A stretch of 64,000 nucleotides of DNA from a virus. The translations under genes and the position numbers were made by a program. Within the stretch, counting starts at the first letter, position 1; each line of letters opens with the position of its first letter. The notes under the pieces are model-generated. The model saw only the letters and a program-made list of their open reading frames with translations, did no database searches and was not told the origin of the DNA. Location of the stretch: IMG/VR virus record IMGVR_UViG_3300027917_000039; one strand, written 5' to 3'. Positions 9,830-57,820 of this stretch are shown piece after piece.

Positions 9830-9936
9830 TAGGATCTCCAGTGTGCGTGTGTGTTTAGTTATCAGGAGTCAGCGGGTCTGCAAACACCGCCTCGCCGCAT
9901 TGCAGTACGACCGGGCTGACTTGCCCGCTCCCGAAG

Positions 9937-10008
9937 CTGTGGAGGCTGGACTCGAACCAGCAACAGTCCGGTTAACAGCCGGATACTCTACCATTGAGTT
10001 ACTCCACA
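9937..10008 (-). tRNA. tRNA-Asn (anticodon GTT)
   Basis: Hand-folded cloverleaf: acceptor TGTGGAG/CTCCACA, D-arm ACTC-AATGGTA-GAGT, anticodon arm TCCGG-CTGTTAA-CCGGA, T-arm GCTGG-TTCGAGT-CCAGC, discriminator G, U8 A14 G18G19 U33 A37 present. No encoded CCA. Confidence 0.85.
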
Positions 10009-26071: not shown

Positions 26072-27004
26072 TTAGTCTCCAGTTTTGGAATGGTCAAATA
26101 CAAATTTCTTAATCAGGTCACGATTGAGTTTCATCCACTCGTCTCTTGTTGCTCTTACTTCACTGTCTTTCTCTTTCTCCTGTCTTCCGGCACGTTTCGC
26201 TTCAAGGGTAATGGGATCGAGACGCAACAACCACTGCAAGCACGCCACCCAGCCGTCTCGTGGCGTCTTTGCTCCGAGAGCTTCACACACACCCTTCCAC
26301 TTCGTAGGCTTTAGAGCCTCACGCTTCAGGACATTGATCGCTCTCGGTTTGGGGTTGGTATCGACCCCGAACTTTCGGTCTTCCTGTTGCAGCCGCATCA
26401 GGTACGCTTTGTAATCCCGATTGGCTAACTTAGCTCGTTCGATGAACTCGCTGGCGCCCATACCGATGGCGTCGTCAACGAACTTCTCCTGCAAGTCGGC
26501 GGGCAAGTTTGCTAACGCAAGTGCCGCCTTCATACTTATCTCGCCTCGCTCGAAAGCCGGGATGGCACTCTCGCAAAGGCGGTTCAACTGCAACTGGTCT
26601 TTGACCCACTGCGGGGTCTTGTCAATCAACACGCACAACTCTAAAAGAGATCGCCCACTCTCCATGAGCATCTTCAATCGTCGTGCGTATTCAAATGTGT
26701 GAGTCTTCGGTCGGATCGCATTGCACTTCAACTGGAAGATCAAGACTTCATCGTCTGTCATCTCCCTGATGAGACAAGGAATAGCCACCAACCCGGCTTC
26801 CTTCGCCGCCTCAAACCGATGCCAACCTTCAACGATCTCGTATCGCCCATCCTTGGGACGAACCAAGATGGGTTGCAACAACCCGTCCTTGGCGATCGAC
26901 TCGACCAACTCGGTGTACTCTGGCGATCTGCGCCGCACTGGTCTGAGACTAATGCGTGGGCGGTCGATCTCGGAAAGTGGTAGGAATCGTTGTTCGTGCG
27001 TCAT
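26072..27004 (-). CDS. ParB/Srx-like nuclease-domain DNA-binding protein
   Basis: LRPVRRRSPEYTELVESIAKDGLLQPILVRPKDGRYEIVEGWHRFEAAKEAG matches the ParB N-terminal domain. Start at MTHEQ. Adjacent to the iteron region. Confidence 0.6.
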   Translation of the reverse strand: MTHEQRFLPLSEIDRPRISLRPVRRRSPEYTELVESIAKDGLLQPILVRPKDGRYEIVEGWHRFEAAKEAGLVAIPCLIREMTDDEVLIFQLKCNAIRPKTHTFEYARRLKMLMESGRSLLELCVLIDKTPQWVKDQLQLNRLCESAIPAFERGEISMKAALALANLPADLQEKFVDDAIGMGASEFIERAKLANRDYKAYLMRLQQEDRKFGVDTNPKPRAINVLKREALKPTKWKGVCEALGAKTPRDGWVACLQWLLRLDPITLEAKRAGRQEKEKDSEVRATRDEWMKLNRDLIKKFVFDHSKTGD

Positions 27005-27016
27005 TGCTCTACATCT

Positions 27017-27025
27017 ATTGTAGCA
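27017..27025 (-). promoter_or_regulatory. extended -10 promoter TGCTACAAT (leftward) within the inverted repeat AAAGTTGCTACAATAG
   Basis: Minus-strand read AAAGTTGCTACAATAGATGTAGAGCA-ATG (ParB-like start). Leader only about 6 nt. Confidence 0.4.
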
Positions 27026-27075
27026 ACTTTGATCCGTATTTTCCGCGCGTTCTCGGTTTTCTCGGCACTTTCTCG

Positions 27076-27404
27076 GCGGCGGAGTTTTGGCGGAGGCGGA
27101 GTTCGGAAAACACTCCCTATGCAAAACTTGTCATGGTTGCACGATTTTCCTTGGGACTTGTTTTTGAACTCCGCCTCTCCGCCTTTCGATGACGGCTTTC
27201 TCTAAGTCCTTTGAAGCTAGTGGGTTATGAGTTACCTACCACCCCGGAGAGGGGGCGGAGTTTTTAGGCGATTTCGACGAAACTCCGTCCCCTCTATCGG
27301 GTGGTGTGGTGATTTGGCAACACCCTGTAGAGGGGTTTCCACCCGTTAGAGGGGGCGGAGTTTTCGTCGCCGACGGCGAAACTCCGCCAATTCTCCGCCC
27401 CCGC
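27076..27404. repeat. iteron array: GGCGGAGTT(T) direct and inverted copies, two near-palindromes
   Basis: Direct copies at 27078, 27095, 27254 and 27354. Inverted copies AACTCCGCC at 27167 and 27380, with a variant at 27281. A 17-nt unit AGAGGGGGCGGAGTTTT occurs twice. Palindrome GGCGGAGTTTTCGTCGCCGACGGCGAAACTCCGCC at 27354-27388. Confidence 0.6.
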
Positions 27405-27470
27405 TGCCGGGTGGTTTGATGAGCAATCACGGCACCCATCTGGGAATGCGCGGAAAATTCCCAGCAAAGT

Positions 27471-27479
27471 TGCTACAAT
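27471..27479 (+). promoter_or_regulatory. extended -10 promoter TGCTACAAT (rightward) within the mirrored copy of the inverted repeat
   Basis: AAAGTTGCTACAATAGGGGTAGACG...GGAGGAAGAC-ATG (primase start). Confidence 0.4.
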
Positions 27480-27513
27480 AGGGGTAGACGATTTTGAGAT
27501 TTCGGAGGAAGAC

Positions 27514-30264
27514 ATGCAACGCAACCCTTCTGTTACGTCTGCGTTCCAGACGTACTTTGAGAACGTCCTCAAACAGAACCACAACAATCCGGCGCTTATA
27601 TCCAGGTGGGGCGCCGAACCCGCCCGCTTCGAGACACAGATCATGTGCAAGAAGATGGGCACGCCGATCCCAGATTCACAGAAGTGGACCTGCGATGGCG
27701 AGACGTTCGGACCACAACGCTGGCCATACGACTCTGACACTGAGCCCAACTACAGCGACCCACCCATCCAGTACAACATCGGTGAGAGACTCCTGGCGAT
27801 CGGAACAAGCTGGTGGGATTGGAAGAACAAGCGATCCATCGGGCTAGGCTTCGACTTCGACTCGCTCATCGACCACGATGAGGGCGTCGGTGTCGATCAG
27901 TCTACCATCGCCAAGTTGGACAGACTGGACTTGCCGTGGGTGGAGGTGATCCGCTCGACGCGGGGCAACGGACGACACATCTATATCTGGTTCGATCCAG
28001 ACAACGCCCCGATCGCAAACAACCATCTTGAGCACGCCGCGATCGCTCGCTCATTCCTCCCGCTGCTGGCGACCCACTCAGGACTTGACATCGACACGAG
28101 CGTCGACTGCAAGGGTCTGATCATGTGGATTCACCATGTGAACGCGACGAAGGAAAACCGTGGCTACGAACTCGTCAAACCAGCAACGCAAATTCTGACT
28201 GCCGATCATGTTCCTCCGAACTGGAAGGATCATCTCGAAGTCGTCTCCGGCAGCAGAACCAAAGTGCGCGTCCAAGGATGGACGCCCAATGGTACAACAT
28301 CGGGTGATGAACTCGATGAAATGACCCAGGCGTACTCTCGTACCGAACTGGACGAAGTTCACCTGAAGATTCTGGAAGAACTGGAAGGTACGGGGCACAC
28401 GTCGGTGTGGGTCCACGACCACCATCTGTGGCAAGGTCATACCGGAGCATTGAAGCAGGTGTATGACGATTTCGCCGAACGCGGCACGCCGCTGCGCGGG
28501 CTGTTCGACACGAACTCATCAGATACTGACCCTGGCAAGCCCAACTGCTTCGCGCGACCCAAGCCCGGAGGTGCTTGGGACGTGTATCGTTTCGGTGAAG
28601 GCACGGCAGAGCACCCTCTGTGGGATCAGCAAGGCAAGTGGACCCACATCGGATTCAACACCCAACCCACACTGAAACAGGTATGCTTGGCGAGCGGAGG
28701 CTATGAAGGACCGGACCAACGAAAAGGATTCCTGTTCGACTCAAAGGATGACTTCCTGGCTGCCTTGGAGTTGTTGGGCTCGAAGGTGAAGCTGCCCAAG
28801 AAGGCAGACGGCAGGGAGTTGTCGCTGAGAATGATCGACGGGAGGATCGTGGCGACGGTCGAGAAGAAACGCGGGGATGAGAAAGAAGACTTCCCGCGAT
28901 GGGTGAAGGGCTCCGGCGTCTGGGAGCGACTCATCGACGACGCTGATGAGACTGCTGATACGGAAATGGAGGAAGAGACTCTCTGGTCCGAACTGGACGG
29001 GAAGTTCCGAGCCCTGCGGGTTGCGGGTGTGTGCGGTGGGCAATTCCACTCGTGGGTCATCTACGACAACACTGAGTCGTGGACCACCCACCCTCGCGAG
29101 AATATCAAATCGTATCTCGCCTCCATTGGCTACAAGCAGGCAGATGGGCTGCTTGGAGGCGCCATCTACAAATGCTGGACCCTCGTGAATGAACCGTTTG
29201 GACCTGAGTACCCTGGAGGACGTATGTGGAATCGTGATGCCCCGCAGTTTGTTTACCCACCCGTCGATTTGAAGGAAGGCGAAGAACCGAAACACCCGAC
29301 ATGGAACAGATTGCTTGAGCACTGCGGTGTCGAACTGAACGAATACATCCCAGAGTTGAAATGGTGCAAAGACTGGGGCATCACCACTGGCGGCGATTAC
29401 CTGCTCGCGTGGATTGCCTGCATGTTTCAGAACCCTTGGTGCAAGCTGCCGTACCTCTTCATGTACGGTCCGCAGAACAGCGGGAAGTCATCGTTCCATG
29501 AGGCTATCGGCTTCTTGCTGACAAAGGGAGTGGAGAAAGCCGACCGGGCGTTGACATCGAAGCAAGGCTACAACGGCGAACTGGAGGGAGCGATCCTGGC
29601 AGTTGTCGATGAAGTTGACATCACGAAGGCAGGGTCGGAAGTCTACAACAAGCTGAAGGAATGGGTGACGGCGGGGACGATCTCGATACACGCCAAGTAC
29701 AAGCAAGTTGTGGACATGCCCTCTACTCTGCACTTCGTACAGATGTCCAACGACCGCCGCAGCTTGCCAGTGTTCCCAGGCGACACGCGGATCACGGCGA
29801 TGAACGTGCCGTTCCTTGAAGCCGAGATTCCCCGTGATGAGTTCCATCGCAGGCTCAAGGAAGAGGCGTCTCACTTCATGCGGTCGGTAGTGGACTACCA
29901 TATGCCGCCGCCGATCGGACGCCTCGCGTTACCGATCATCGAGACGCAGGGCAAGATCGACGCCGCTGACGCGAACACTGACGATCTGGAATTGTTCCTT
30001 GAAGAGAAGTGCTTCCCGGTTCCGGGGGCGTTTATCAAGATCACCGACTTCATGGAGAAGCTGCACGCCTACTTGCCAGAGCATCTTATCTCAGATTACC
30101 CCAGGCGGGTGGTGGAGCCAAGACTGAAGGAACGCTACGTTGTTGGAATGGGATCAGGAAAGAACAACCAAGTATTGATCGGAAACCTATCATTTAACCC
30201 TAACGCGAAGCCCAGCACACCGTACACAAGAGAGGGTGCGAAGGTACGAAAGGAAGAACTATGA
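27514..30264 (+). CDS. bifunctional AEP primase-polymerase / D5-like SF3 helicase
   Basis: AEP motifs GLGFDFDS (DxD) and TRGNGRHIYIWF (sGxGxH). SF3 Walker A YLFMYGPQNSGKSSF and Walker B LAVVDEVD. Confidence 0.8.
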   Translation: MQRNPSVTSAFQTYFENVLKQNHNNPALISRWGAEPARFETQIMCKKMGTPIPDSQKWTCDGETFGPQRWPYDSDTEPNYSDPPIQYNIGERLLAIGTSWWDWKNKRSIGLGFDFDSLIDHDEGVGVDQSTIAKLDRLDLPWVEVIRSTRGNGRHIYIWFDPDNAPIANNHLEHAAIARSFLPLLATHSGLDIDTSVDCKGLIMWIHHVNATKENRGYELVKPATQILTADHVPPNWKDHLEVVSGSRTKVRVQGWTPNGTTSGDELDEMTQAYSRTELDEVHLKILEELEGTGHTSVWVHDHHLWQGHTGALKQVYDDFAERGTPLRGLFDTNSSDTDPGKPNCFARPKPGGAWDVYRFGEGTAEHPLWDQQGKWTHIGFNTQPTLKQVCLASGGYEGPDQRKGFLFDSKDDFLAALELLGSKVKLPKKADGRELSLRMIDGRIVATVEKKRGDEKEDFPRWVKGSGVWERLIDDADETADTEMEEETLWSELDGKFRALRVAGVCGGQFHSWVIYDNTESWTTHPRENIKSYLASIGYKQADGLLGGAIYKCWTLVNEPFGPEYPGGRMWNRDAPQFVYPPVDLKEGEEPKHPTWNRLLEHCGVELNEYIPELKWCKDWGITTGGDYLLAWIACMFQNPWCKLPYLFMYGPQNSGKSSFHEAIGFLLTKGVEKADRALTSKQGYNGELEGAILAVVDEVDITKAGSEVYNKLKEWVTAGTISIHAKYKQVVDMPSTLHFVQMSNDRRSLPVFPGDTRITAMNVPFLEAEIPRDEFHRRLKEEASHFMRSVVDYHMPPPIGRLALPIIETQGKIDAADANTDDLELFLEEKCFPVPGAFIKITDFMEKLHAYLPEHLISDYPRRVVEPRLKERYVVGMGSGKNNQVLIGNLSFNPNAKPSTPYTREGAKVRKEEL

Positions 30265-30899
30265 ACGACATGAAACCAACGAATCCGAAAGACGCGATAG
30301 GCTCGACGAAAGTCCCGTACGATCTCGTCCCTGAGAGTGCGATCGCCGAACTGGCGACGGGCTTCTTGGAAGGGGCATTGAAGTACGGAAGGTACAACTG
30401 GCGTGCGAAAGGCGTGAGGGCGTCGATCTATTACTCGGCGATGCGACGCCACATGGCGAAGTGGTACAACGGAGAGGATGCCGATGAGAAAACGCGGGTC
30501 AAACATCTCGCCTCTGTCATGGCGTGCTGTGCGATCATCCTAGACGCGGATTTGTGTGGAAAGCTGAATGATGATCGCCCACCAAAGGCTCCGGTCAGCA
30601 AGAGGATCGACGAACTGTTTGAGGTGATTGCCCATCTGAAAGGACTGTTCAAGGACGAGCACCCACACCAGTACACGATCGCCGACAGCGAAGAGTTCGG
30701 TCCCGACTGCCCTGGAGGGTGCGGGGCGACCGGGCTCGACAGATGTGACGACTGTGGGTTCACGCCAGAGGTGCCTATTGTCTTCGAGATCAAGGACGCC
30801 GAACGCTCGAAAGAGTTCGATGAGTTGGTCGCCAAGCTAATGAACGACCATCGCGAGGCTCTTGGCATTCACCCGCGAGCAGTCAAGGGGGAAGCATGA
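30261..30899 (+). CDS. dATP/dGTP pyrophosphohydrolase-like (MazG-related N-domain family)
   Basis: KVPYDLVPESAIAELATGFLEGALKYGRYNWRAKG...RRHMAKWYNGEDADEKTRVKHLASVMACCAIIL matches the conserved K.PYDLiP...A.KYG..NW..G...RH...GED.D..HLA pattern. Confidence 0.45.
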   Translation: MNDMKPTNPKDAIGSTKVPYDLVPESAIAELATGFLEGALKYGRYNWRAKGVRASIYYSAMRRHMAKWYNGEDADEKTRVKHLASVMACCAIILDADLCGKLNDDRPPKAPVSKRIDELFEVIAHLKGLFKDEHPHQYTIADSEEFGPDCPGGCGATGLDRCDDCGFTPEVPIVFEIKDAERSKEFDELVAKLMNDHREALGIHPRAVKGEA

Positions 30900-31498
30900 G
30901 CCTGCAATCACTGAACGGGCACCTGCTCTGCGCGGTCGACGTGGAGACAACCGGAGTGCTGGCGGGATACCACGAGATCATTCAGATCGCGGCAGTACCC
31001 CTAGACCAGCACTTCGAGCCCCACAAAGAACATCGACCCTTTTACATGAACGTGTGCCCGGACCACTTCGACCGGATCAGCCAGGAAGCCACAAAGAAGC
31101 ACGGCATCTCAACAGAGTCTCTGCGGGAGTGCCCTTCTCAGGACCAAGCTGTGGAGATGTTCGCCGAGTGGTTCCGCAAACTCGATCTGCCCTTTGGAAA
31201 GCGACTGGTTCCGCTCGCTCACAACTGGGGCTTCGAGCGCGGCTTCCTGACCTACTGGTACGGAGTGGATGGGATGTACAACTTCTGGCAGTCCCACCCA
31301 CGCGACACAATGGCTCTGGCTGGCATGGTCAACGACCTGTATGCTTGGCACGGTCGCAACCCACCGTTCAAGTACCTAAGCCTCACTTCGATGTGCAGTA
31401 TGTTCGACATTGAACTCGACAACGCTCACGATGCTCTGGCTGATTGTCTTGCCACCGCTAAGCTGTACGCCGCCTTCATGCGGTTCATGGGTGGCTGA
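30896..31498 (+). CDS. DEDDh 3'-5' exonuclease (DnaQ-like)
   Basis: Exo I VDVETTG, Exo II HNWGFERGFL, Exo III AHDALADC. Confidence 0.75.
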   Translation: MSLQSLNGHLLCAVDVETTGVLAGYHEIIQIAAVPLDQHFEPHKEHRPFYMNVCPDHFDRISQEATKKHGISTESLRECPSQDQAVEMFAEWFRKLDLPFGKRLVPLAHNWGFERGFLTYWYGVDGMYNFWQSHPRDTMALAGMVNDLYAWHGRNPPFKYLSLTSMCSMFDIELDNAHDALADCLATAKLYAAFMRFMGG

Positions 31499-31505
31499 TG
31501 GAACT

Positions 31506-31566
31506 GGGGAGGGGGTGCTGTTGGTTCCTTCAGCACCCACCCTCCCCATACGTTCCTTCTTTTGTC
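31506..31566 (+). terminator. rho-independent terminator of the rightward operon
   Basis: GGGGAGGGGGTGCTG-(10 nt loop)-CAGCACCCACCCTCCCC followed by ATACGTTCCTTCTTTTGTC. Confidence 0.55.
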
Positions 31567-31667
31567 GCCGCTGCTCGTCCCGTTTCGCCTTGCGGAGTGA
31601 CCCGCGAGGCGGACGCTTTGGGCTGAAGTCCTTGTTGGCTTTCTTCTCGCGGCACTTGCGGCATTTC

Positions 31668-32225
31668 TTAGCCATGAGTGTTGTTCACTTCTATGTTGAT
31701 GCCTGAGTGGTTGATTGCTCGTACCGTTGAGAAGTCAGTCAGGGCGGCACGATTCACATAGATGCCATACTGACGCAGTTGCTTCCTGCATTTGGCGGTC
31801 AGTTCTTCCTCCACCTCGCCGCTGATGTTCTCTAGCAATCCTTGCAAAGTCCACTTGGAAACCACCTCCACGATAGCGGCTTGCGCGATGTCGCCAGCCG
31901 TATCTTCTGGCGACCAGTTCTGCTTCCCGATCGCCTGAACAATGTCATTGATCTTGTAGACCACCACCCCACCCGCAACAACCTCTTTGCCATCTCTGGT
32001 CATCAGGGATTGTGTGCGTGTATTGATCGTTTGACGCGCCACCACGGCAATCTCCATGTCGCTTATGAGTGGCCAGAAGAATCTGATCCCAGGTCTCAGT
32101 TCCTTGGGCTCAAACCACAAGGTCCACACCACTGCGCTTTCGGTCGCCCGAATGATGACGCGACGGGGGATGAACTCCAACAACGCCTCGAAGATTTGAC
32201 CGAGCCAAGCGAAGGCGGTCTCCAT
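31668..32225 (-). CDS. SPFH/band-7 domain protein
   Basis: RVIIRATESAVVWTLWFEPKELRPGIRFFWPLISDMEIAVVARQTINTRTQSLMTRDGKEVVAGGVVVYKINDIVQAI follows the SPFH consensus (rfG...pGlhf.iP...v...TkD...v.vd.vv.yrv.d). Start at METAFAWLG. Confidence 0.5.
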   Translation of the reverse strand: METAFAWLGQIFEALLEFIPRRVIIRATESAVVWTLWFEPKELRPGIRFFWPLISDMEIAVVARQTINTRTQSLMTRDGKEVVAGGVVVYKINDIVQAIGKQNWSPEDTAGDIAQAAIVEVVSKWTLQGLLENISGEVEEELTAKCRKQLRQYGIYVNRAALTDFSTVRAINHSGINIEVNNTHG

Positions 32226-47779: not shown

Positions 47780-48289
47780 TCAAGTAATTACTGCTGTCGC
47801 AGAATGTGTCAGGGTGAGAAGATAGTCGTTCGTCTTCTCATGATGGTGCTGGTAGACTGGGTTGCCTTCGACCAGCTTTGCTTGGATGTACCAAGCTGTT
47901 TTGTACTCGTACTCTTCGACGTACTTCACATCGTAACGCTTGTTGTCGTAGACAATCCAGTCGTCTTTCTTAATCGTCCAGGCTGGGGTAACATCGGTGC
48001 GGTCGATGATGAAATCTCGAAGCCCAGGATCGAATGTGCCGCCTTGCACCATCTTCTTGTTGGCGGAGATGACCGAGATAGTCTGAATGATGTCACGAGT
48101 CAACTTGACCGGCAGAACCACCGCTCGCCGAATGTACACAGAGTTGGCTGTGGTGGCTCGCACCCCTGTGTCATAGTTGGTGGTCGTCGTACCCAACTGG
48201 TAGACGGTGATCTCGTTTCCATACTCTTTCTTCATTTGTCGGATGCACCGACGAATGAAGCGAATCAGGTTGTAGTTCGGTCTAGCCAT
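47780..48289 (-). CDS. hypothetical protein (head-tail joining region)
   Basis: 169-aa ORF. Confidence 0.45.
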   Translation of the reverse strand: MARPNYNLIRFIRRCIRQMKKEYGNEITVYQLGTTTTNYDTGVRATTANSVYIRRAVVLPVKLTRDIIQTISVISANKKMVQGGTFDPGLRDFIIDRTDVTPAWTIKKDDWIVYDNKRYDVKYVEEYEYKTAWYIQAKLVEGNPVYQHHHEKTNDYLLTLTHSATAVIT

Positions 48290-48554
48290 CTTGCTGCTGC
48301 CTCACTTTGCAGTACATCGCGTTCTCATTCAGTTGGTGAATCTGCTCGGTGTTTGCCTTGATGACTTCAGTGTTGGTGGCTATGACCGCAGCCTGCTCTT
48401 TCACCATGTTCGATAGAACTTCGGTGTTGAAGTCTTCCAACTTTTGGACTCTCTCCACTAGGTTCTCTTCGCGCTTCCAGTCGCGCCAAATGAAGAACAA
48501 CACCACTCCTACAAGCGGTCCGAAATCTTTCAAGAGCGATGTTAATTCCATCAT
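48282..48554 (-). CDS. small single-TM coiled-coil protein
   Basis: TM segment GPLVGVVLFFIW followed by a coiled coil. Confidence 0.4.
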   Translation of the reverse strand: MMELTSLLKDFGPLVGVVLFFIWRDWKREENLVERVQKLEDFNTEVLSNMVKEQAAVIATNTEVIKANTEQIHQLNENAMYCKVRQQQDG

Positions 48555-49756
48555 AGCCCTGCGGCTCCTATCGCAAAGTTGTTGTTGAGTTTGGCGTCTA
48601 CCGACGCGGCTCCGCCAGTGGAAGTTAGCCCCATCGCGTCACGCACTTGCTGAGCGGTGAGCGGGGCGGCGGAAATAGTCAATTTGTGCAAGTCAGTTGT
48701 CACGACGTTACACGATCCAGTTGAGTCATCAGTTAGTCCGGAGATCCCCCTAGCATAAATCAATCCGTTGTTGCAAGTAGAATCAATGTAAATGTGTCCA
48801 GACAAAGAGTCTATTTGAACAACGGAGTCTGCTTGAGTCAAATTTGTAATTTTGATGCTACCCGACCAACCTCTGACAACTAGCGTGGCGTTTGCCGTGC
48901 CCGCCATATTGAACGTGGGAGAAGACTCTTCTGAATTAAGGTCGGTGCAAAAGTCAAGCACATGATGTGCGCCATCATTACTGGTTATTCGTATTTCTCC
49001 AGAGATGCCACAACTCTTCAAGTACCCTTCAAAATCTACCAACCCTGTGCAAATGGCGGAGTCGGCACACAATGCTCCGTTGCCTGTCCCGTTGAAGACC
49101 AGTTTTTCCAGCGTCGTCCCTTCTGTGATACACCCTGCATTGAGAGTCAAAACAGTGTGACAAGACGCACCAATTACAGTGTAAGAGGTCAAATCGTCGG
49201 AGGCATCGACGTACGTGTCGTCAATGATGACTATCTTCTTTGGCATTTTTCTTGCTGCAACTATAGCGGTAGCGTTTGCAATGCTACTTGTTGGTCTGGT
49301 GTTTGTTCCGACTGGATATTGAGAGCTGTCTTCTCCGTTGGCGGTGTCTACCCACACACTGGAATTGGCAAACGATAGATTTTCCATTTGAGTTGAATAA
49401 GTCAACCCAGCAGAGTTTGAGGCTCGCACTGAAACTTGATTCACGTTAGTATTGTCAGCGATGTTGCTGTTTGCACCTACTAGATTCACAGCATACTGAC
49501 CGTCCTCAAATGTCACCGTGTAGCCATTGATGAGTTCCACAACACGCGCTAGTGTGACGCCTCCCACCGTGATCGGAGCCACATGGGAATGGGTAGTTAG
49601 GAAAGGCATCCCTTCCTCGTCATCTTCTAGGTCTTTCAAAGTCAATCGAAAGGTGTCCAAGTTCAACTCGTATATCTCAGGAGATACAGAGACGACAGCC
49701 ATGTCCGCCTTGTTGACTGTGATGACCTTTGTTGACCAGTCGATGGAAATTGCCAT
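48551..49756 (-). CDS. beta-helix (pectate-lyase-like) virion protein
   Basis: Repetitive G/N/T/S-rich strands with many Cys, typical of right-handed beta-helix tailspike-like proteins. Confidence 0.5.
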   Translation of the reverse strand: MAISIDWSTKVITVNKADMAVVSVSPEIYELNLDTFRLTLKDLEDDEEGMPFLTTHSHVAPITVGGVTLARVVELINGYTVTFEDGQYAVNLVGANSNIADNTNVNQVSVRASNSAGLTYSTQMENLSFANSSVWVDTANGEDSSQYPVGTNTRPTSSIANATAIVAARKMPKKIVIIDDTYVDASDDLTSYTVIGASCHTVLTLNAGCITEGTTLEKLVFNGTGNGALCADSAICTGLVDFEGYLKSCGISGEIRITSNDGAHHVLDFCTDLNSEESSPTFNMAGTANATLVVRGWSGSIKITNLTQADSVVQIDSLSGHIYIDSTCNNGLIYARGISGLTDDSTGSCNVVTTDLHKLTISAAPLTAQQVRDAMGLTSTGGAASVDAKLNNNFAIGAAGL

Positions 49757-49765
49757 CCTTCACCT

Positions 49766-49972
49766 CTATTCAGGCTGAGTTGACCCGTGCCCGTATCGCT
49801 GTTGCAAAGCGGTGACGATGAGCCCACGATTTTCTTGAGTCGCAGCCTGAAGCGTGTTTAGGCGCATTTCCAAGGCGTTGAGTTTGTCAAACAACTCTTT
49901 CATCACTGCCCCGTGATGAACGAGTGTCTCAGCAATCGCTATTGCGTTTTGTTCATTGATTTCTGCCGTCAT
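49766..49972 (-). CDS. hypothetical small protein
   Basis: 68-aa helical ORF. Confidence 0.35.
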   Translation of the reverse strand: MTAEINEQNAIAIAETLVHHGAVMKELFDKLNALEMRLNTLQAATQENRGLIVTALQQRYGHGSTQPE

Positions 49973-49974
49973 GT

Positions 49975-51834
49975 TTATTCATCCGGAACTAAGAGGGCTG
50001 TCAACTCCAACCCGGAACTACTACTGATAGACCCGGTGAGAGGCGACGTTTTGTAATATGGAGACGAAGACGATTTTCTCACTCTGCCTGTTACTGGCTG
50101 GCTGGCTGAGAACGATCGAGTATCGCTTACGTTTCCAGAGGCGTTTGTCAAACTGTTGAAGATTACTCCAGTTGAGACAGGAGACCCGGTCGCTGGAGAC
50201 GATCCAATAGTTTCAGTTGTTGTGTACGTGTAGTTGCTTGCACCAGTGACGGTGATTTGGTATGCTCCGTTGTAGACTTCCTCTGTCGCACCGGAGATGT
50301 AAACCCAGTCGCCGGTAGTCAACCCATGAGAGGAATGGGTGACATTTGCCGTTGTCCCAGACCCTGTGATGCTGACAGCCACTTCGTAGTGCAAATCGCC
50401 AGTGGCATCCGATGCTCTAAGAAACACTCTGGCGTTCTCAATGACATTCAACGTGTTCACATCTCGCACAACGACTTTTGTTGTGACCGGGTTCTGGATG
50501 AAATCCACAGTGTTTCCAGTGTAGCTGTTGGCGTACCCTGTCGCATTGTTGACAAGATAAATGGTCGCTGTTCCAGATGATGTGTTGTTTACATCGTAGT
50601 TGCCAACTTCGTTGTCAAACACGAAGTTGTTAAATGTGGTAGTCGTCGCGTCACTTGTTGAAGCGTACTCCACTCCAATGTCACAGTTGATGAATGTGAG
50701 GTCTGAGATGTTGGCGTCGTTCGACGGGTGAAGAAGAGCCCCTGATGTCCCTGTATAATTTCGGAACGTACAGGTGTTGAATGACCCTGTACTCGGATCG
50801 ACTTGCTGACAGTCAGTGAAACTTGTTCCGACGACGGTTGAGTTTGCCGAGAAGTTTACAGTGCTCGCACGAATCAAAGTGCAGCCGTCAAAATTCACCG
50901 TGGCGTTCGCATCAGAAGAGTCAATATCAAAACGAGTGGTATTAGTTGTGCCTGCCGCTTTGACGACCAGCCTGTCGACATTAGCAGTCAAACCAGAGCC
51001 ATTAAACGTCATGTTGTAAAAAGCACTGGCGACAATACCAGAACCGTTTGCATCGCGATCCTTGAAAACAACCGTCTCGTCAGCAGACTCAAAAGATGTG
51101 GTCGTGGCTCCGTTGCCAATGTTCAACTGACCTTGACAAAACAGAACACCATCTTTGACTTCGAGAATACCATAGCGATTTGCTGTGGCTTCATCGTGAG
51201 CGGCGGCATCAGCTAAATCCCAAGAGGTTCCAGTAAGAGTCAACCCTGTTCCGAAACGGACGGCGTCGTTCCACTGGTTGTCAATGATACGAATGTTGCC
51301 AGAGTTGCTGATGTCGACAAACCAAGTGATTACTTTCACATCTGTCAAATCAAGAGTGCCACTGGTGGCGTAGATGTCGCGAGTCGAGTTCACATCGAGA
51401 ACAAAACATCTCCACTCCCCGCCCCATGTATCGGAACCGGCTATGTGCCACTCAACATAGTTTCCAGTGCTATCAGTCAGGCGGACCATATAACCACTTG
51501 TGTTGACTGCCCCAGTGGTTTTGGCTTCCATGAAAGACGCAACAGAGTTTTGTGCCCACCAGTAAAGATGAGTGTTGGTGGCGCTCATATCCTGAGCCGT
51601 CGTCAACGTGAAATTCGCAGACGATCGGGAGTTCTTCGCTGCTTGCCATGTGTACGAAGCAGTACCTTGAATGAAAACTTCTGTGTCTGTTCCACCAGAA
51701 GGTCCATTCCAGGTGCCGTTGTCGTTCGTACCATTGCTGGTGAGCGTCAGATTGGCGGTAGTAGTTAGAGCCATGTAAGTCTCGCTTGAGGCGAAGGCTG
51801 GCAGCGTGAAGCTGCCAGCCCAACCGAGAATCAA
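49975..51834 (-). CDS. S/T/N-rich beta-helix-like virion protein
   Basis: 619 aa with extreme T/S/N content and repetitive strands. Confidence 0.5.
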   Translation of the reverse strand: MILGWAGSFTLPAFASSETYMALTTTANLTLTSNGTNDNGTWNGPSGGTDTEVFIQGTASYTWQAAKNSRSSANFTLTTAQDMSATNTHLYWWAQNSVASFMEAKTTGAVNTSGYMVRLTDSTGNYVEWHIAGSDTWGGEWRCFVLDVNSTRDIYATSGTLDLTDVKVITWFVDISNSGNIRIIDNQWNDAVRFGTGLTLTGTSWDLADAAAHDEATANRYGILEVKDGVLFCQGQLNIGNGATTTSFESADETVVFKDRDANGSGIVASAFYNMTFNGSGLTANVDRLVVKAAGTTNTTRFDIDSSDANATVNFDGCTLIRASTVNFSANSTVVGTSFTDCQQVDPSTGSFNTCTFRNYTGTSGALLHPSNDANISDLTFINCDIGVEYASTSDATTTTFNNFVFDNEVGNYDVNNTSSGTATIYLVNNATGYANSYTGNTVDFIQNPVTTKVVVRDVNTLNVIENARVFLRASDATGDLHYEVAVSITGSGTTANVTHSSHGLTTGDWVYISGATEEVYNGAYQITVTGASNYTYTTTETIGSSPATGSPVSTGVIFNSLTNASGNVSDTRSFSASQPVTGRVRKSSSSPYYKTSPLTGSISSSSGLELTALLVPDE

Positions 51835-53544
51835 CTATTCATCAGACGTTCGGATCGCTGTGGATGACCCTCCGCTGCTTCCCAATGTGCCAGTGGTCTC
51901 GAACGTCTTTATTGGAGTGCCTCCACCGTCGCGAACACGAATGAACAGAGTTCTGTCCGCATCGTACACCGTAGTGAATTGAGACGTGTTAGACGTGGCA
52001 GCCTCGTCAATGTAGCTGATGAACACGTTGTTCGTGGCAGCAGCCACGTTTACCCCGCTGAAATCCTGAGACGAATTGAACGTGAAGTGCGAAGTATTGT
52101 ACGAATCGTACGCGACCCGCAGATAACGTCCAGCATCTGTTTCGATTCGGATTGTGCCAGAACTAGGAGTGTCTGCTGGAATGTTGCCAGTGCCGACGTT
52201 TGCAGTTGTTTCGGCAGCACCATTCAAAGCTGCTTGCAACGTCATCTGGTCATAGTCGATCCCACTGGACTGATCATTTGTCACCAGTACCCTGTCTCCA
52301 GAAACCAACCCAAGCACTTGGAATGTGACGTTGTTTGGAGGTGTGATCACATTGGCGGTCAGATCGGTCAGTTTGTCGCTTGACGTAAGCTGAGAGGCTA
52401 TGATACCGAGACCATATGCACCGATGATAGCTGATCCAGTCGAAGCTCCACAGAAGGGAGTATCCACTGGCTCGCGCGACGTTACTGTACCAGAATCGGC
52501 TGTAGAAGAGCTGGAACCTCCCGTAATCACTGTGCCGCTGGTCGGAGCAGTGCCAGTGAGAATTTGAATCCACATCTTCGTTGGCGCAGATGTGCTGTCG
52601 ATAGCAAGCATCTGTCCGGACCCTGTGTTCCATGTTACGGACTCTGGCTCAGTCCACGAGTTCACTGTGTTAGGTGTCACAGCGATCTCATGAGTAATAC
52701 CTCGGAACAACTCTCCACTAAGACCATAGATGGTCTCTGCTGAGCCATCCTGTGACAGATACTTCATCCTTTCGTAGAAGTCATTTATGTCATGGTTTGC
52801 TGTGTCGATGTCCCATTCGGAGTAGTAGTGCTCATCGGAGCCGTCGGCGTCAACGTCAAGAGCTGTGTAGCCCTCGTTGTTGTTGGTGATTGTTGTCCAT
52901 GCTGACACGGTCGCGTTTGCCGTGATATTGTTCAAGTCGTCAGCTTGTGTCAAAGCCAAGACATTGTTACCACGGGATGTGCCGTTGATCTTGAACTCTG
53001 AAAAGGTTTTGCCATACGTTCGGCTAATACCAATCAATCGACGACCGTCAACGTCAGCACCAGCCGTTCGGGTTTTCACCATAAAACGATGGCTGATACC
53101 GTTGTTTGTGTCTGCATTAACGCCACCGCCGCCAGAAAGATTCCACCAGTCGTCAGTGATCACAGTACCATTCTGAATGAGCTGGATAAGCACGGTGGAG
53201 TCACCGAAGTTCACGATTCCATCATAATACTCTTCGGTTCCACCTGACCCTTGGATGATTGAGCCGTCGTACAGATGCTCAGCATCGTTGGCAGTGATAT
53301 TGAAGCCGTTCTTCAGAGTGATGATGTTGTCCGTAGACCGTTCTGAAGGGGTTAGGTCAGTGATGTCTAGCTCGTCGTCACCAGAACTCACTTCCTGATC
53401 TGCAAAATCTTGAAGCCAACGGTGAAATTCGATGACGGTGGCGTAACTTGGAGTTGTTCCGCCGAACCGTACATGGTCGTCACCTATGTAGCGAATGTCA
53501 CCTGTTGCTCGGTCGATGGTCCAGTCGCCGTCTACCATAGCCAT
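51835..53544 (-). CDS. S/T/N-rich structural protein
   Basis: 569-aa ORF with GGAGGAAC before the ATG. Confidence 0.5.
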   Translation of the reverse strand: MAMVDGDWTIDRATGDIRYIGDDHVRFGGTTPSYATVIEFHRWLQDFADQEVSSGDDELDITDLTPSERSTDNIITLKNGFNITANDAEHLYDGSIIQGSGGTEEYYDGIVNFGDSTVLIQLIQNGTVITDDWWNLSGGGGVNADTNNGISHRFMVKTRTAGADVDGRRLIGISRTYGKTFSEFKINGTSRGNNVLALTQADDLNNITANATVSAWTTITNNNEGYTALDVDADGSDEHYYSEWDIDTANHDINDFYERMKYLSQDGSAETIYGLSGELFRGITHEIAVTPNTVNSWTEPESVTWNTGSGQMLAIDSTSAPTKMWIQILTGTAPTSGTVITGGSSSSTADSGTVTSREPVDTPFCGASTGSAIIGAYGLGIIASQLTSSDKLTDLTANVITPPNNVTFQVLGLVSGDRVLVTNDQSSGIDYDQMTLQAALNGAAETTANVGTGNIPADTPSSGTIRIETDAGRYLRVAYDSYNTSHFTFNSSQDFSGVNVAAATNNVFISYIDEAATSNTSQFTTVYDADRTLFIRVRDGGGTPIKTFETTGTLGSSGGSSTAIRTSDE

Positions 53545-53559
53545 GCGAAGTTCCTCCAG

Positions 53560-53817
53560 TTAGGAAATAGTGATGGCGCTGAGCGAGTCTCCATTGTAGG
53601 TAAACGTCGCTGTTTTGCCGGTCTTGGTGTCATAAACAGTGGCGAGTTTTCCGCCATTGTACGTTAGTGTGATCGTCCCTGTCGGAGTGCTGACCTGAGT
53701 CAGCTCGCTTCCATTGTAAGTGAATGACTGATCTTCAGGATTCTTTAACGTGTCACCAGACGGCAGGTTAGCCACTACGCCGATTGAAGTGAGCACTAGA
53801 GGCTGCTGTATCGTCAT
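53560..53817 (-). CDS. hypothetical small protein
   Basis: 85 aa, T/G-rich. Confidence 0.4.
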   Translation of the reverse strand: MTIQQPLVLTSIGVVANLPSGDTLKNPEDQSFTYNGSELTQVSTPTGTITLTYNGGKLATVYDTKTGKTATFTYNGDSLSAITIS

Positions 53818-54557
53818 AGCACAACACCCTCACCAATCTCAATGTCCAGCTTCTTTGTGGTCAGTGCTCTTCCAAGTCTGATAACTACGTGCCCGTCAGT
53901 CGTCGGTGCAATGTGAGTGATTTTTCCTTCAGTGGAAGCAAGGAAGTAAAATAACCCCACTTGCAAGTTTGTCGTGCCTGTGATTCCAGTCCAATCTGCA
54001 AGTTCAACGTGTCCTTCAGTAAGAATCTCTATGTCTTGGTTGCTGCCTCCGGTTGAGGAATTGGCAAATCCAACAGGATAGCATTGAAGATAAAGCGGAA
54101 CCGGGGCACCAGGATCAGCGTTCGCTGAATCCACTGTGTTGCTGGACAGGACATAAACTGGAGACCCCTTCAAGATCGCACCAGATGATTTCATCGTGTG
54201 CTTATTTAGATCGACATCCCCGCTGCCAGTTCCAGGTGGATGGTAGCCGTCCAACGCGACGTGGGCGAAATCGTTCAAGGTCATCGCGCTCTCAAGGCTG
54301 CGGACTCTGTCCATGTTGAATCCGACAGAGTGAGCGATGGCTAGATTGTCTGAAGCGGGGTCGTTCGCGTTGTTTCGATGGTAGGCTAGGTAGTCTTCGA
54401 GCGTCAGTTCATTGTCCGCTCCGCGTTCCCAGACGCTGCCAACAACAGAAGCACTGTGATCCAGGTCGAGGGACGAGACTGCAAGCAGCCTTTTCTCTAG
54501 GAGTCCGACCGTGCCGTCGGACACCCACATCGGATGTCGCCCTGGAAAATTGATCAT
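53814..54557 (-). CDS. structural protein sharing a C-terminal domain with ORF 62676-63134
   Basis: C-terminus FYFLASTEGKITHIAPTTDGHVVIRLGRALTTKKLDIEIGEGVVL resembles the other ORF (YYLDPNTAGRITTTAPTIDGDFVVPVGTALSATEFEIEIGAPIKL). Confidence 0.45.
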   Translation of the reverse strand: MINFPGRHPMWVSDGTVGLLEKRLLAVSSLDLDHSASVVGSVWERGADNELTLEDYLAYHRNNANDPASDNLAIAHSVGFNMDRVRSLESAMTLNDFAHVALDGYHPPGTGSGDVDLNKHTMKSSGAILKGSPVYVLSSNTVDSANADPGAPVPLYLQCYPVGFANSSTGGSNQDIEILTEGHVELADWTGITGTTNLQVGLFYFLASTEGKITHIAPTTDGHVVIRLGRALTTKKLDIEIGEGVVL

Positions 54558-57265: not shown

Positions 57266-57820
57266 TTAGTCAGCCCTACTCATTCTGATCACACGATCGT
57301 CTGTGAGAAATGGCTTGAGCCATCGCCACACACGAGCCGTGGGAATACCATACACAAGGTACTCCATTGCATCACTGCTGTTGTCGTAGGTAGTCCGAAC
57401 AGCAGCATATGATTGCCGGACGACGTTCAGTCTGTCGACTGCGTCTTCCGGGTCAAAGCCTTCAAGCAATGCCAGAGCAATCTCATAGCACGCCCATTCG
57501 ATTTCGGTCGGGACAGATTCATCTTGTCCGCGAGGGAACTCCAACTCTTGATCGGCGTCAGCCGCGATTATCGCATCGCGACTTGGCATGTCGTCGAATA
57601 CGATGATCTTCGAGTAGTTGCCAGTCTTCGCTGGGTCAGCCTCGTACATGACGAGCCAGACGGTGTGCTTCACACCTTTGTAATTCAGCGAGTCGATGAT
57701 GCGAGTGGCTTCGGTCAACGCCTTCGGACGATCAGCCGCAGCACTGTCACTCCAGCCTTCAGAATGAAGCCGGTTGCTGAAGTACGTGTTCGCATCTGAA
57801 AGCGTGCCGTAGTAAGCCAT
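57266..57820 (-). CDS. hypothetical head-morphogenesis protein
   Basis: 184-aa ORF with SD GAGGTG before the ATG. Confidence 0.45.
   Translation of the reverse strand: MAYYGTLSDANTYFSNRLHSEGWSDSAAADRPKALTEATRIIDSLNYKGVKHTVWLVMYEADPAKTGNYSKIIVFDDMPSRDAIIAADADQELEFPRGQDESVPTEIEWACYEIALALLEGFDPEDAVDRLNVVRQSYAAVRTTYDNSSDAMEYLVYGIPTARVWRWLKPFLTDDRVIRMSRAD

Follow-up and report, generated by a model that had tools for sequence, protein, structure and literature searches.

A 64,000-nucleotide (nt) stretch of viral DNA (IMG/VR record IMGVR_UViG_3300027917_000039), referred to here as the window, contains a repeat-rich intergenic region (27005-27513). On one side of it, a ParB-family gene (26072-27004) reads leftward; on the other, a gene for a primase-helicase of 916 amino acids (aa) (27514-30264) reads rightward. 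What does this region do? A preliminary description of the sequence had read it as a replication origin, a parS centromere bound by the adjacent ParB-like protein, or both, with divergent promoters at its edges. We resolved the region into three nested layers: a pair of outward-directed promoter-like arms, a tandem iteron module (module 1, 27078-27183), and a palindromic module (module 2, 27238-27414) separated from module 1 by 55 nt. We consider it probable that the region is a replication origin for a self-loading helicase-initiator of the type known from Staphylococcus aureus pathogenicity islands (SaPIs), phage-inducible chromosomal islands (PICIs), and phage P4, placed between twin promoters of replication genes.

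Convergent iterons in the window and in uncultivated relatives

Module 1 consists of two sets of short repeats that point toward each other across a spacer:

27078-27103, + strand: left iteron set of module 1, with three GCGGAG cores (GGCGGAGTT at 27078, GCGGAG at 27090, and GGCGGAGTT at 27095).
27104-27166, no strand: spacer of module 1; 63 nt, 43% G+C, partly palindromic; presumed melting and helicase-loading region.
27167-27183, − strand: right iteron set of module 1, with two inverted GCGGAG cores (AACTCCGCC at 27167 and CTCCGC at 27177).

Exact copies of the iteron GGCGGAGTT are found at 27078, 27095, 27254, and 27354 on the + strand and at 27167 and 27380 on the − strand, with no further exact copies in the 64 kb. 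Four direct and three inverted copies had been reported in the preliminary description; the four direct and two of the inverted copies are exact, and the third inverted copy (AACTCCGTC, 27281-27289) carries one mismatch. The core GCGGAG is concentrated in the same place, with nine copies within 27079-27398 compared with 38 in the whole window (binomial P of ∼3e-13). We also scanned the window with a strict detector, defined as two exact 6-mers followed after 50 to 100 nt by two reverse-complement copies. It returned a single module, at 27078-27183, and 20 shuffled windows gave two modules in total. Both the clustering of the repeats far above chance and the uniqueness of module 1 in 64 kb counted in favor of an origin.

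For comparison, we used about 27 distinct loci from IMG/VR and JGI metagenomes, in which the primase-helicase is 41 to 71% identical to that of the window. The related contigs, up to 124 kb long, come from environmental metagenomes, and nearly all of the relatives (∼25 loci) keep the order of ParB, intergenic region, and primase. An automatic dyad-symmetry finder returned different palindromes in different loci and was replaced by manual anchoring together with the strict detector. The layout of module 1 is present in 21 related loci, with one to three iterons, a spacer of 60 to 80 nt (mostly 62 to 68 nt; G+C of 0.27 to 0.47), and one to three inverted iterons, and the orientation of the iterons is strictly convergent in 21 of 21. 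The iterons themselves are specific to lineages. At least six kinds occur (CGGAG-type, GCAGGAG, GACGGCAA, GGGGAG or GGGAAG, GAGTGGAT, and TTGGAT), each strongly concentrated in its own intergenic region when counted by cores that were chosen post hoc. Conservation of the repeats in relatives, the lack of which had been named as a point of refutation, extends to their geometry, while their sequence depends on the lineage. In the closest relative (L030; primase 71% identical), GACGGCAA stands at the positions where the window has GCGGAGTT, which is the pattern expected of coevolution between a site and its binding protein.

Searches beyond this group of loci returned little. We found no DNA similarity to 50,697 phage records, and protein searches against cultured phages gave only distant helicase-domain or ParB-domain matches. 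An exact 17-mer scan of IMG/VR for near-identical relatives produced two chance matches, both in unrelated coding sequence. Among 185,579 species genomes, there were no relatives of the primase-helicase and no prophage or plasmid copies.

The primase-helicase and the candidate origin

The gene to the right of the iterons supplies a candidate for the protein that reads them:

27514-30264, + strand: primase-helicase gene, 916 aa; Pfam DUF5906; superfamily 3 (SF3) helicase at approximately aa 630 to 800.
29947-30264, + strand: C-terminal winged helix of the primase-helicase, aa 812 to 916; candidate iteron reader.

Three motifs in the N-terminal third are invariant in the alignment of the relatives, namely, DFD (114-116), STRGNGRH (148-155), and VD (197-198), which we take to be primase-polymerase motifs I to III of the archaeo-eukaryotic primase superfamily. 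Searches of cultured phages detected no sequence relatives of the 600-aa N-terminal part. An AlphaFold model of aa 597 to 916 (predicted local distance difference test score of 94.9) was matched by Foldseek best to the C-terminal region of NrS-1 (6k9c; E of 3e-12), followed by PriRep1 (7pds; E of 7e-9), a structure bound to double-stranded DNA, and SaPI5 (7ola; E of 5e-7). Further structural matches were to poxvirus D5/E5 and African swine fever virus PrimPol, and NrS-1 was also matched by profile (E of 3.7e-7). The C-terminal domain is a winged helix of the RFX/P4-alpha type, and its fold matches the origin-binding domain of phage P4. It is the most variable and fastest-evolving part of the protein, with 22 to 45% identity to relatives compared with 54 to 76% for the helicase core.

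Some relatives have a differently built gene. In L033 and L055, the primase-helicase is 1245 and 1236 aa long, compared with 916 aa here, and contains an insertion of ∼320 aa that could be an intein or a homing element. In L058 (2749-5347; 398 and 448 aa) and L061 (2554-5254; 487 and 417 aa), the primase and the helicase/winged-helix parts are encoded by separate adjacent genes. Most SaPIs likewise keep pri and rep apart, whereas the fused gene corresponds to SaPI5.

Homologues of the helicase plus winged helix also occur in integrative elements without ParB. L059 carries an integrase, L060 lies in the chromosome of Anatilimnocola floriformis, and L062 and L063 carry resolvases. In four of the four ParB-less elements with DNA at hand, convergent iteron sets are found upstream of the helicase operon:

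L059: CTGTCAA twice, 69 nt at 42% G+C, then TCGACAG twice.
L060: TGACGAT twice, ∼84 nt at 32% G+C, then GCGTCAC and ATCGTCAC.
L062: TAGTGTCA three times, a spacer of ∼40 nt, then TGACACTA twice.
L063: GTGACG twice, 99 nt, then CGTCAC twice.

This suggests that the layout travels with the helicase family rather than with ParB. The octamer TAAGTCCT(T), which lies at the junction of modules 1 and 2 in the window (27203-27211), recurs in the candidate origin of the unrelated element L062 (3690-3700 and 3780-3790) and might be a shared priming site or a site for a host factor.

The origin named in the preliminary description is therefore well supported by the geometry kept in 21 loci, by the SF3 helicase with its P4-like winged helix, and by the ParB-less elements. 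The layout of module 1, its conservation amid changing iterons, and the SF3 and P4-like winged-helix fold of the neighboring protein are direct observations; the order of events at the site is modeled on the SaPI Rep and PriRep proteins and P4 alpha. By that analogy, the winged helix would bind the GCGGAG iteron sets, and two hexamers would assemble head to head on the two sets, across 27104-27166. The hexamers would melt this spacer and self-load, with the first primers laid down by the N-terminal primase domain.

The C-terminal winged helix of SaPI Reps binds iterons of 5 to 6 nt. In SaPI origins, an AT-rich region is flanked on both sides by two or more iterons, which run in opposite directions; each side is presumed to receive one hexamer, without a separate loader (PMC9371898). 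PICI origins have been described likewise (PMC6092414). The locus in the window is similar in that at least two short, opposed iterons lie on each side (three cores on the + strand at 27079-27101 and two on the − strand at 27169-27182) and in that the initiator is an SF3 helicase joined to a primase, as it is in SaPI5, with a winged helix at its C terminus. Unlike these islands, the locus has a second module of 25-nt palindromic units and a divergent ParB-family neighbor, and it is carried not by a satellite but by a large siphovirus-like phage that itself encodes a DNA polymerase A. Sequence similarity to the SaPI and PICI proteins is confined to the helicase fold (14 to 16% identity).

The origin of P4 and its alpha protein offer a second parallel, as octamer or hexamer iterons are found there in both orientations. 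The primase domain of P4 is of the DnaG type, whereas the motifs here are primase-polymerase-like, and the P4 family model TIGR01613 gave the primase-helicase 18.8 bits against a cutoff of 108.7. In domain order (primase-polymerase-like N terminus, SF3 helicase, and C-terminal winged helix), the protein resembles pRN1 ORF904 and NrS-1; pRN1 differs in that iterons could not be identified (PMC2777425).

Several points weigh against an origin at this site. The SaPI origin lies immediately downstream of rep, whereas the region studied here is upstream of the gene and between promoters; downstream of the primase-helicase (30264-31700), the strict detector found no comparable module. The AT richness of the module 1 spacer is modest (43% G+C over 27104-27166, compared with 53% for the intergenic region). 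GC skew, which had been proposed as a check, has no inflection at this site apart from the local switch in coding strand, and we set it aside as an origin marker because the signal is dominated by the coding strand. Among the relatives, L013/L006 and L058 keep both genes without iteron modules at this place and have a shorter AT-rich palindrome between the arms, and L061 has different 25-nt repeats, which suggests that the origin may change place or form. (A tRNA-like stretch in the intergenic region of L058 was not confirmed by ARAGORN.) The iteron cores behind the enrichment statistics of the relatives were picked after inspection of the sequences. Finally, winged-helix sequence and iteron class covary only to the extent that phylogeny predicts. 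Because class and clade coincide for the iterons, the helicase and ParB could not be told apart as iteron reader by covariation.

The ParB-like protein and the question of parS

The other candidate reader is encoded to the left of the repeats:

26072-27004, − strand: ParB/Spo0J-family gene, 310 aa, first of the leftward operon; Pfam ParB_N, E of 9e-17.

The protein is a genuine member of the ParB/Spo0J family (TIGR00180, 86.9 bits against a cutoff of 58.45; PDB profile of Spo0J, 1vz0, E of 7e-28). It has N-terminal and helix-turn-helix (HTH) domains, and its N terminus aligns with those of six homologues. KorB, a ParB-family repressor, is a structural relative (8qa8; E of 5.6e-9). The repeats could accordingly be a centromere-like or KorB-like platform on which ParB partitions an episome or represses the flanking promoters, an alternative that we regard as unlikely. 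The nucleation sites of ParB would then be either the module 2 palindromes or the conserved motifs (CCACCC-N3-AGAGGGG and the junction). A true ParB/Spo0J/Noc-family protein with an HTH, the synteny of ParB and primase in ∼25 loci, and KorB among the structural relatives all fit such a platform, as does the conservation across lineages of the iteron-independent half of the module 2 unit, the junction element, and the ParB recognition helix. The arrangement also resembles ParABS and KorB systems in that an array of palindromes at divergent promoters adjoins the gene of a ParB-family protein, one that has both the N-terminal domain and the HTH.

Other points count against such a platform. A Pfam scan of ∼55 open reading frames (ORFs), among them the three that follow ParB in its operon direction, found no ParA (short ORFs were only partly scanned), and a 16-bp parS site of the TGTTNCACGTGAAACA type has no match in the 64 kb even at three mismatches. 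The recognition helix, DK(S/T)PxW(I/V)(K/R)DQLQLNRL, is common to genomes with GCGGAGTT, GACGGCAA, GCAGGAGTT, or CCGGAG iterons and to one genome without iterons. A helix that is nearly constant while the iterons change or vanish (as in L013) makes ParB an unlikely iteron reader. The convergent geometry, moreover, accompanies homologous helicases in elements that lack ParB, and the half-site spacing of the palindromes ranges from ∼12 to ∼22 nt among relatives, unlike a fixed dimer site. The arginine box also departs from GERR: residues 59 to 63 read EGWHR in the window and closer relatives, and distant ones have GNWR or GEHR. Of the centromere proposal, then, the family membership of the protein stood, and the canonical parS and the ParA partner did not. 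The C-terminal third of ParB was slightly better correlated with iteron class, but we set this correlation aside because the ParB of the closest relative has 276 aa compared with ∼310.

Binding by ParB is thus possible for the conserved parts outside the iterons and fits the iterons poorly. Both proteins may act at one origin, with the winged helix reading the iterons and the ParA-less ParB loading on CCACCC-N3-AGAGGGG and on the junction sequence AAGGACTTA...TACCACCC; we give this arrangement a low probability. If true, it would mean that a ParB-type clamp has been recruited as an organizer or regulator of a lytic phage origin and its twin promoters and not for partition.

Module 2, the promoter-like arms, and the phage setting

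Between module 1 and the right arm, the region contains a junction element and two long palindromes:

27203-27256, + strand: junction element; AAGTCCTT at 27204-27211, then GAGTTACCTACCACCC-N3-GGAG.
27238-27305, no strand: palindrome A of module 2; inverted repeat of 26 nt (85%), with 25-nt units at 27239-27263 (+) and 27280-27304 (−).
27321-27335, + strand: partial unit without an iteron, CACCCTGTAGAGGGG; direct repeat.
27339-27414, no strand: palindrome B of module 2; units at 27339-27363 (+) and 27379-27414 (−); holds the 35-mer at 27354-27388.

The composite unit of module 2 (25 nt) reads CCACCC-N3-AGAGGGG-rCGGAGTTT. Each palindrome holds a convergent pair of iterons ∼22 nt apart (22 nt between the cores in palindrome A), and the right unit of palindrome B (27379-27414) bears an additional CTCCGC at 27393-27398. 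Palindromes A and B, each of ∼70 bp, together make up two direct repeats of ∼100 nt (27239-27312 and 27339-27422). The 17-nt unit reported in the preliminary description was indeed found twice (AGAGGGGGCGGAGTTTT at 27248-27264 and 27348-27364), as was the 35-bp near-perfect palindrome at 27354-27388, in which the 10-nt arms GGCGGAGTTT and AAACTCCGCC are perfect and the center is imperfect. A junction profile built from 22 units (nhmmer) matched only these intergenic regions in 233 kb; in the window, its sole match with an E of <0.01 is at 27225-27256 (E of 0.0013). The motif AAGTCYTT/AARGACTT is enriched 6-fold in the intergenic regions, as a pattern chosen post hoc. In the relatives, the palindromes of module 2 join the iteron of the lineage to a more conserved C-rich/G-rich half, so that the same lineage-specific iteron serves the tandem module 1 and the palindromic module 2.

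Could module 2 instead encode a structured noncoding RNA, acting as a primer or regulator as in RNA-based origins? The predicted fold is very stable (z-score of −8.0 for 27060-27430 as single-stranded DNA), a conserved element of ∼35 nt opens the module, and two of the four arm mismatches of palindrome A, read from the sequence, would be G-T pairs on the + strand. Against an RNA, one iteron in both tandem and palindromic settings favors recognition by a protein over RNA pairing: the stems are built from the same lineage iteron that stands unpaired in tandem in module 1. The units are conserved as sequence in both orientations and not through compensatory changes (L016 compared with L022), and both promoter-like elements are directed away from the region. 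No Rfam family reached its threshold; the best intergenic matches scored 17 to 23 bits against thresholds of 55 to 150 and are hairpin noise. Taken together, a structured RNA is very improbable.

In the origin that we favor, module 2 is probably an auxiliary high-affinity element for binding the initiator, with iteron pairs about two helical turns apart, although this is a weaker suggestion than the one for module 1. The model is crr of P4, a second cis element comprising two iteron-bearing direct repeats of ∼100 to 120 bp. The P4 element differs in lying ∼4.5 kb from ori, whereas the two modules here are 55 nt apart. The iterons of RSF1010 are 20 bp long, lie in direct orientation, and are bound by RepC. 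The iteron block of RSF1010 oriV adjoins a pair of long hairpin-forming inverted repeats, as here, and its hairpins ssiA and ssiB are primase entry sites (PMC8567376). The RSF1010 hairpins, unlike the palindromes of module 2, are 40 nt long and are read by a separate RepB' primase, and homology was not detected.

The outermost layer comprises the two arms and the sequences next to them:

27008-27052, − strand: left arm, promoter-like, facing ParB; TGCTACAAT at 27017-27025, GCGGAAAAT box at 27038-27046, GTAGA at 27008-27012.
27050-27076, + strand: three direct TTCTCGG repeats, 9 and 11 nt apart, among phased T-tracts, between the left arm and the iterons.
27444-27488, + strand: right arm, promoter-like, facing the primase-helicase; GCGGAAAAT at 27450-27458, TGCTACAAT at 27471-27479, GTAGA at 27484-27488.
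27504-27508, + strand: GGAGG Shine-Dalgarno sequence, downstream of the right arm and five nt before the primase-helicase ATG.

The 16-bp inverted repeat said to bracket the region is real. It reads AAAGTTGCTACAATAG at 27015-27030 (−) and 27466-27481 (+), the right copy being one base to the left of the 27467-27482 first given, and it has no other match in the window at up to three mismatches. In its full length, the repeat measures 45 nt with 84% complementarity (27008-27052 and 27444-27488). As had been described, TGCTACAAT is directed outward on both sides (27017-27025 on the − strand and 27471-27479 on the + strand); GCGGAAAAT sits at the −35 position of each arm, and within the window both sequences are limited to the arm pair, with one copy per arm. 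Relatives have T-tract-rich sequence at the position matching that between the left arm and the iterons.

Of 25 loci, at least 18 have an arm that begins no more than 13 nt from the ParB start codon (in the window, 3 nt separate the left arm from the ATG), and arm lengths range from 22 to 73 nt. The two arms of a genome match each other almost completely (up to 68 of 71 nt), and between genomes they differ except for a TA-rich −10-like core and a GTAGAC/G motif. Gene conversion, or a genome-specific regulator that binds both arms, would each explain this identity within genomes. It is plausible that the two arms serve as outward-directed promoters, one for the ParB operon and one for that of the primase, and the divergent promoters of the preliminary description are to that extent upheld by the conservation of the arms; on the other side, a two-hexamer sigma-70 scan detected no promoter, and the extended −10 element is specific to this genome. 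If the arms are promoters, they could couple expression of the replication genes to occupancy of the origin, a suggestion weaker than that made for module 1.

We also considered promoters for a phage RNA polymerase, as the arms resemble the TATAG type, and rejected them: none of the large ORFs was seen to encode a single-subunit RNA polymerase, and the 64 kb contain just two occurrences of the motif. A miniature inverted-repeat transposable element or other mobile cassette framed by the inverted repeat was likewise rejected, as in nearly all relatives the arms reach up to both start codons and include the region of ribosome binding.

The ParB ATG lies 12 nt past the −10-like hexamer (TACAAT AGATGTAGAGCA ATG; 27002-27025 on the − strand) and is not preceded by a Shine-Dalgarno sequence; GTAGAGCA-ATG is kept at the same position in L015, L016, L042, and L043. 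From its sequence, the ParB mRNA is probably leaderless or nearly so. In L026 (intergenic offset 560-1269), L050, and L051, extra ORFs are inserted between the right arm and the primase; they read like HNH/AP2-type homing endonuclease genes, and the L050 copy is decayed, with a (CA)n run. L015 and L049 have a small inserted leftward ORF and a duplicated left arm. Five copies of an 11-nt unit, GAGATTCCGGC, lie ∼60 to 130 nt upstream of the right arm in L041, and CCGGCCGATTT occurs two to three times beside the right arm in L029; these tandem arrays may be further iteron-like arrays in some lineages.

The arms also bear on whether the region serves transcriptional control alone, with the repeats as operators through which a phage regulator times two divergent replication operons while replication starts elsewhere. 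Twin promoter-like arms that are conserved, coevolve within each genome, and are unique in the window would suit such a role, L013 and L058 function without iteron modules, and the skew signal is absent at the site. The repeats, however, are placed between the promoters and do not overlap them, with the nearest iteron ∼50 nt from either −10 element. Ten binding sites, an AT-richer gap of 60 to 80 nt, and strict convergence are atypical of operators and match SF3-helicase origins, and besides ParB no flanking gene is repressor-like. We consider control of transcription alone to be quite unlikely, though more probable than an RNA.

The preliminary description had further raised an episomal phage-plasmid lifestyle, which is not borne out: the phage has its own replisome and structural genes, ParA was not found, and the species genomes searched contain no relatives, although the host is perhaps poorly sampled. 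The window encodes a complete set of replication and structural genes of the virulent type, with DNA polymerase A, an SNF2 helicase, exonucleases, a tape measure protein, a portal protein, and terminase. The absence of an integrase from the 64 kb, on which that idea drew, carries little weight, as the genome is probably larger than the window. A pac or cos packaging site was rejected as well; the terminase genes are 32 kb away, and repeats of this kind are absent near them.

Other features of the window stand apart from the origin. The gene after the primase-helicase (30261-30899, + strand; also L061 5254-5658) has a dATP/dGTP diphosphohydrolase N-terminal domain (PF18909; E of 7e-26) of the MazZ type, known from phages with 2-aminoadenine genomes, and an RNase_T exonuclease gene is next. 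No PurZ-like gene was seen among the ORFs scanned, and the domain is only a hint of a modified-base genome. Between the tail and head genes, the stretch 48000-54000 has a G+C of 0.49 to 0.50, compared with ∼0.54 to 0.56 elsewhere, and contains large ORFs of unknown function (401, 619, and 569 aa). A tRNA-Asn (GTT) at 9936-10008 (−) is the only RNA gene detected in the window and also the only Rfam match (9937-10008). A 184-aa protein encoded between the portal and coat genes (57266-57820, − strand) belongs to the DnaT-like single-stranded-DNA-binding family PF20557 (E of 8e-9), a replication-restart-type domain that is unexpected at that place.

Relative to the known systems, the setting of this candidate origin appears new, with a location upstream of the initiator gene, coevolving promoter arms, a second module of composite palindromes, and a ParA-less ParB partner. 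The constant pairing with a ParA-less ParB and the coevolving arms are left unexplained by the known SaPI/P4 model. The region offers a testable candidate origin for a clade of uncultivated phages whose cultured relatives and host are not known. With ∼25 relatives, at least six iteron specificities, and one switch at 71% primase identity, the clade is a natural series for studying how SF3 winged helices read DNA and how their specificity drifts. The signature of convergent short repeats with a gap of ∼65 nt beside a DUF5906 helicase picked out candidate origins in four unrelated integrative elements and could be used more generally to find origins in metagenomic mobile elements.

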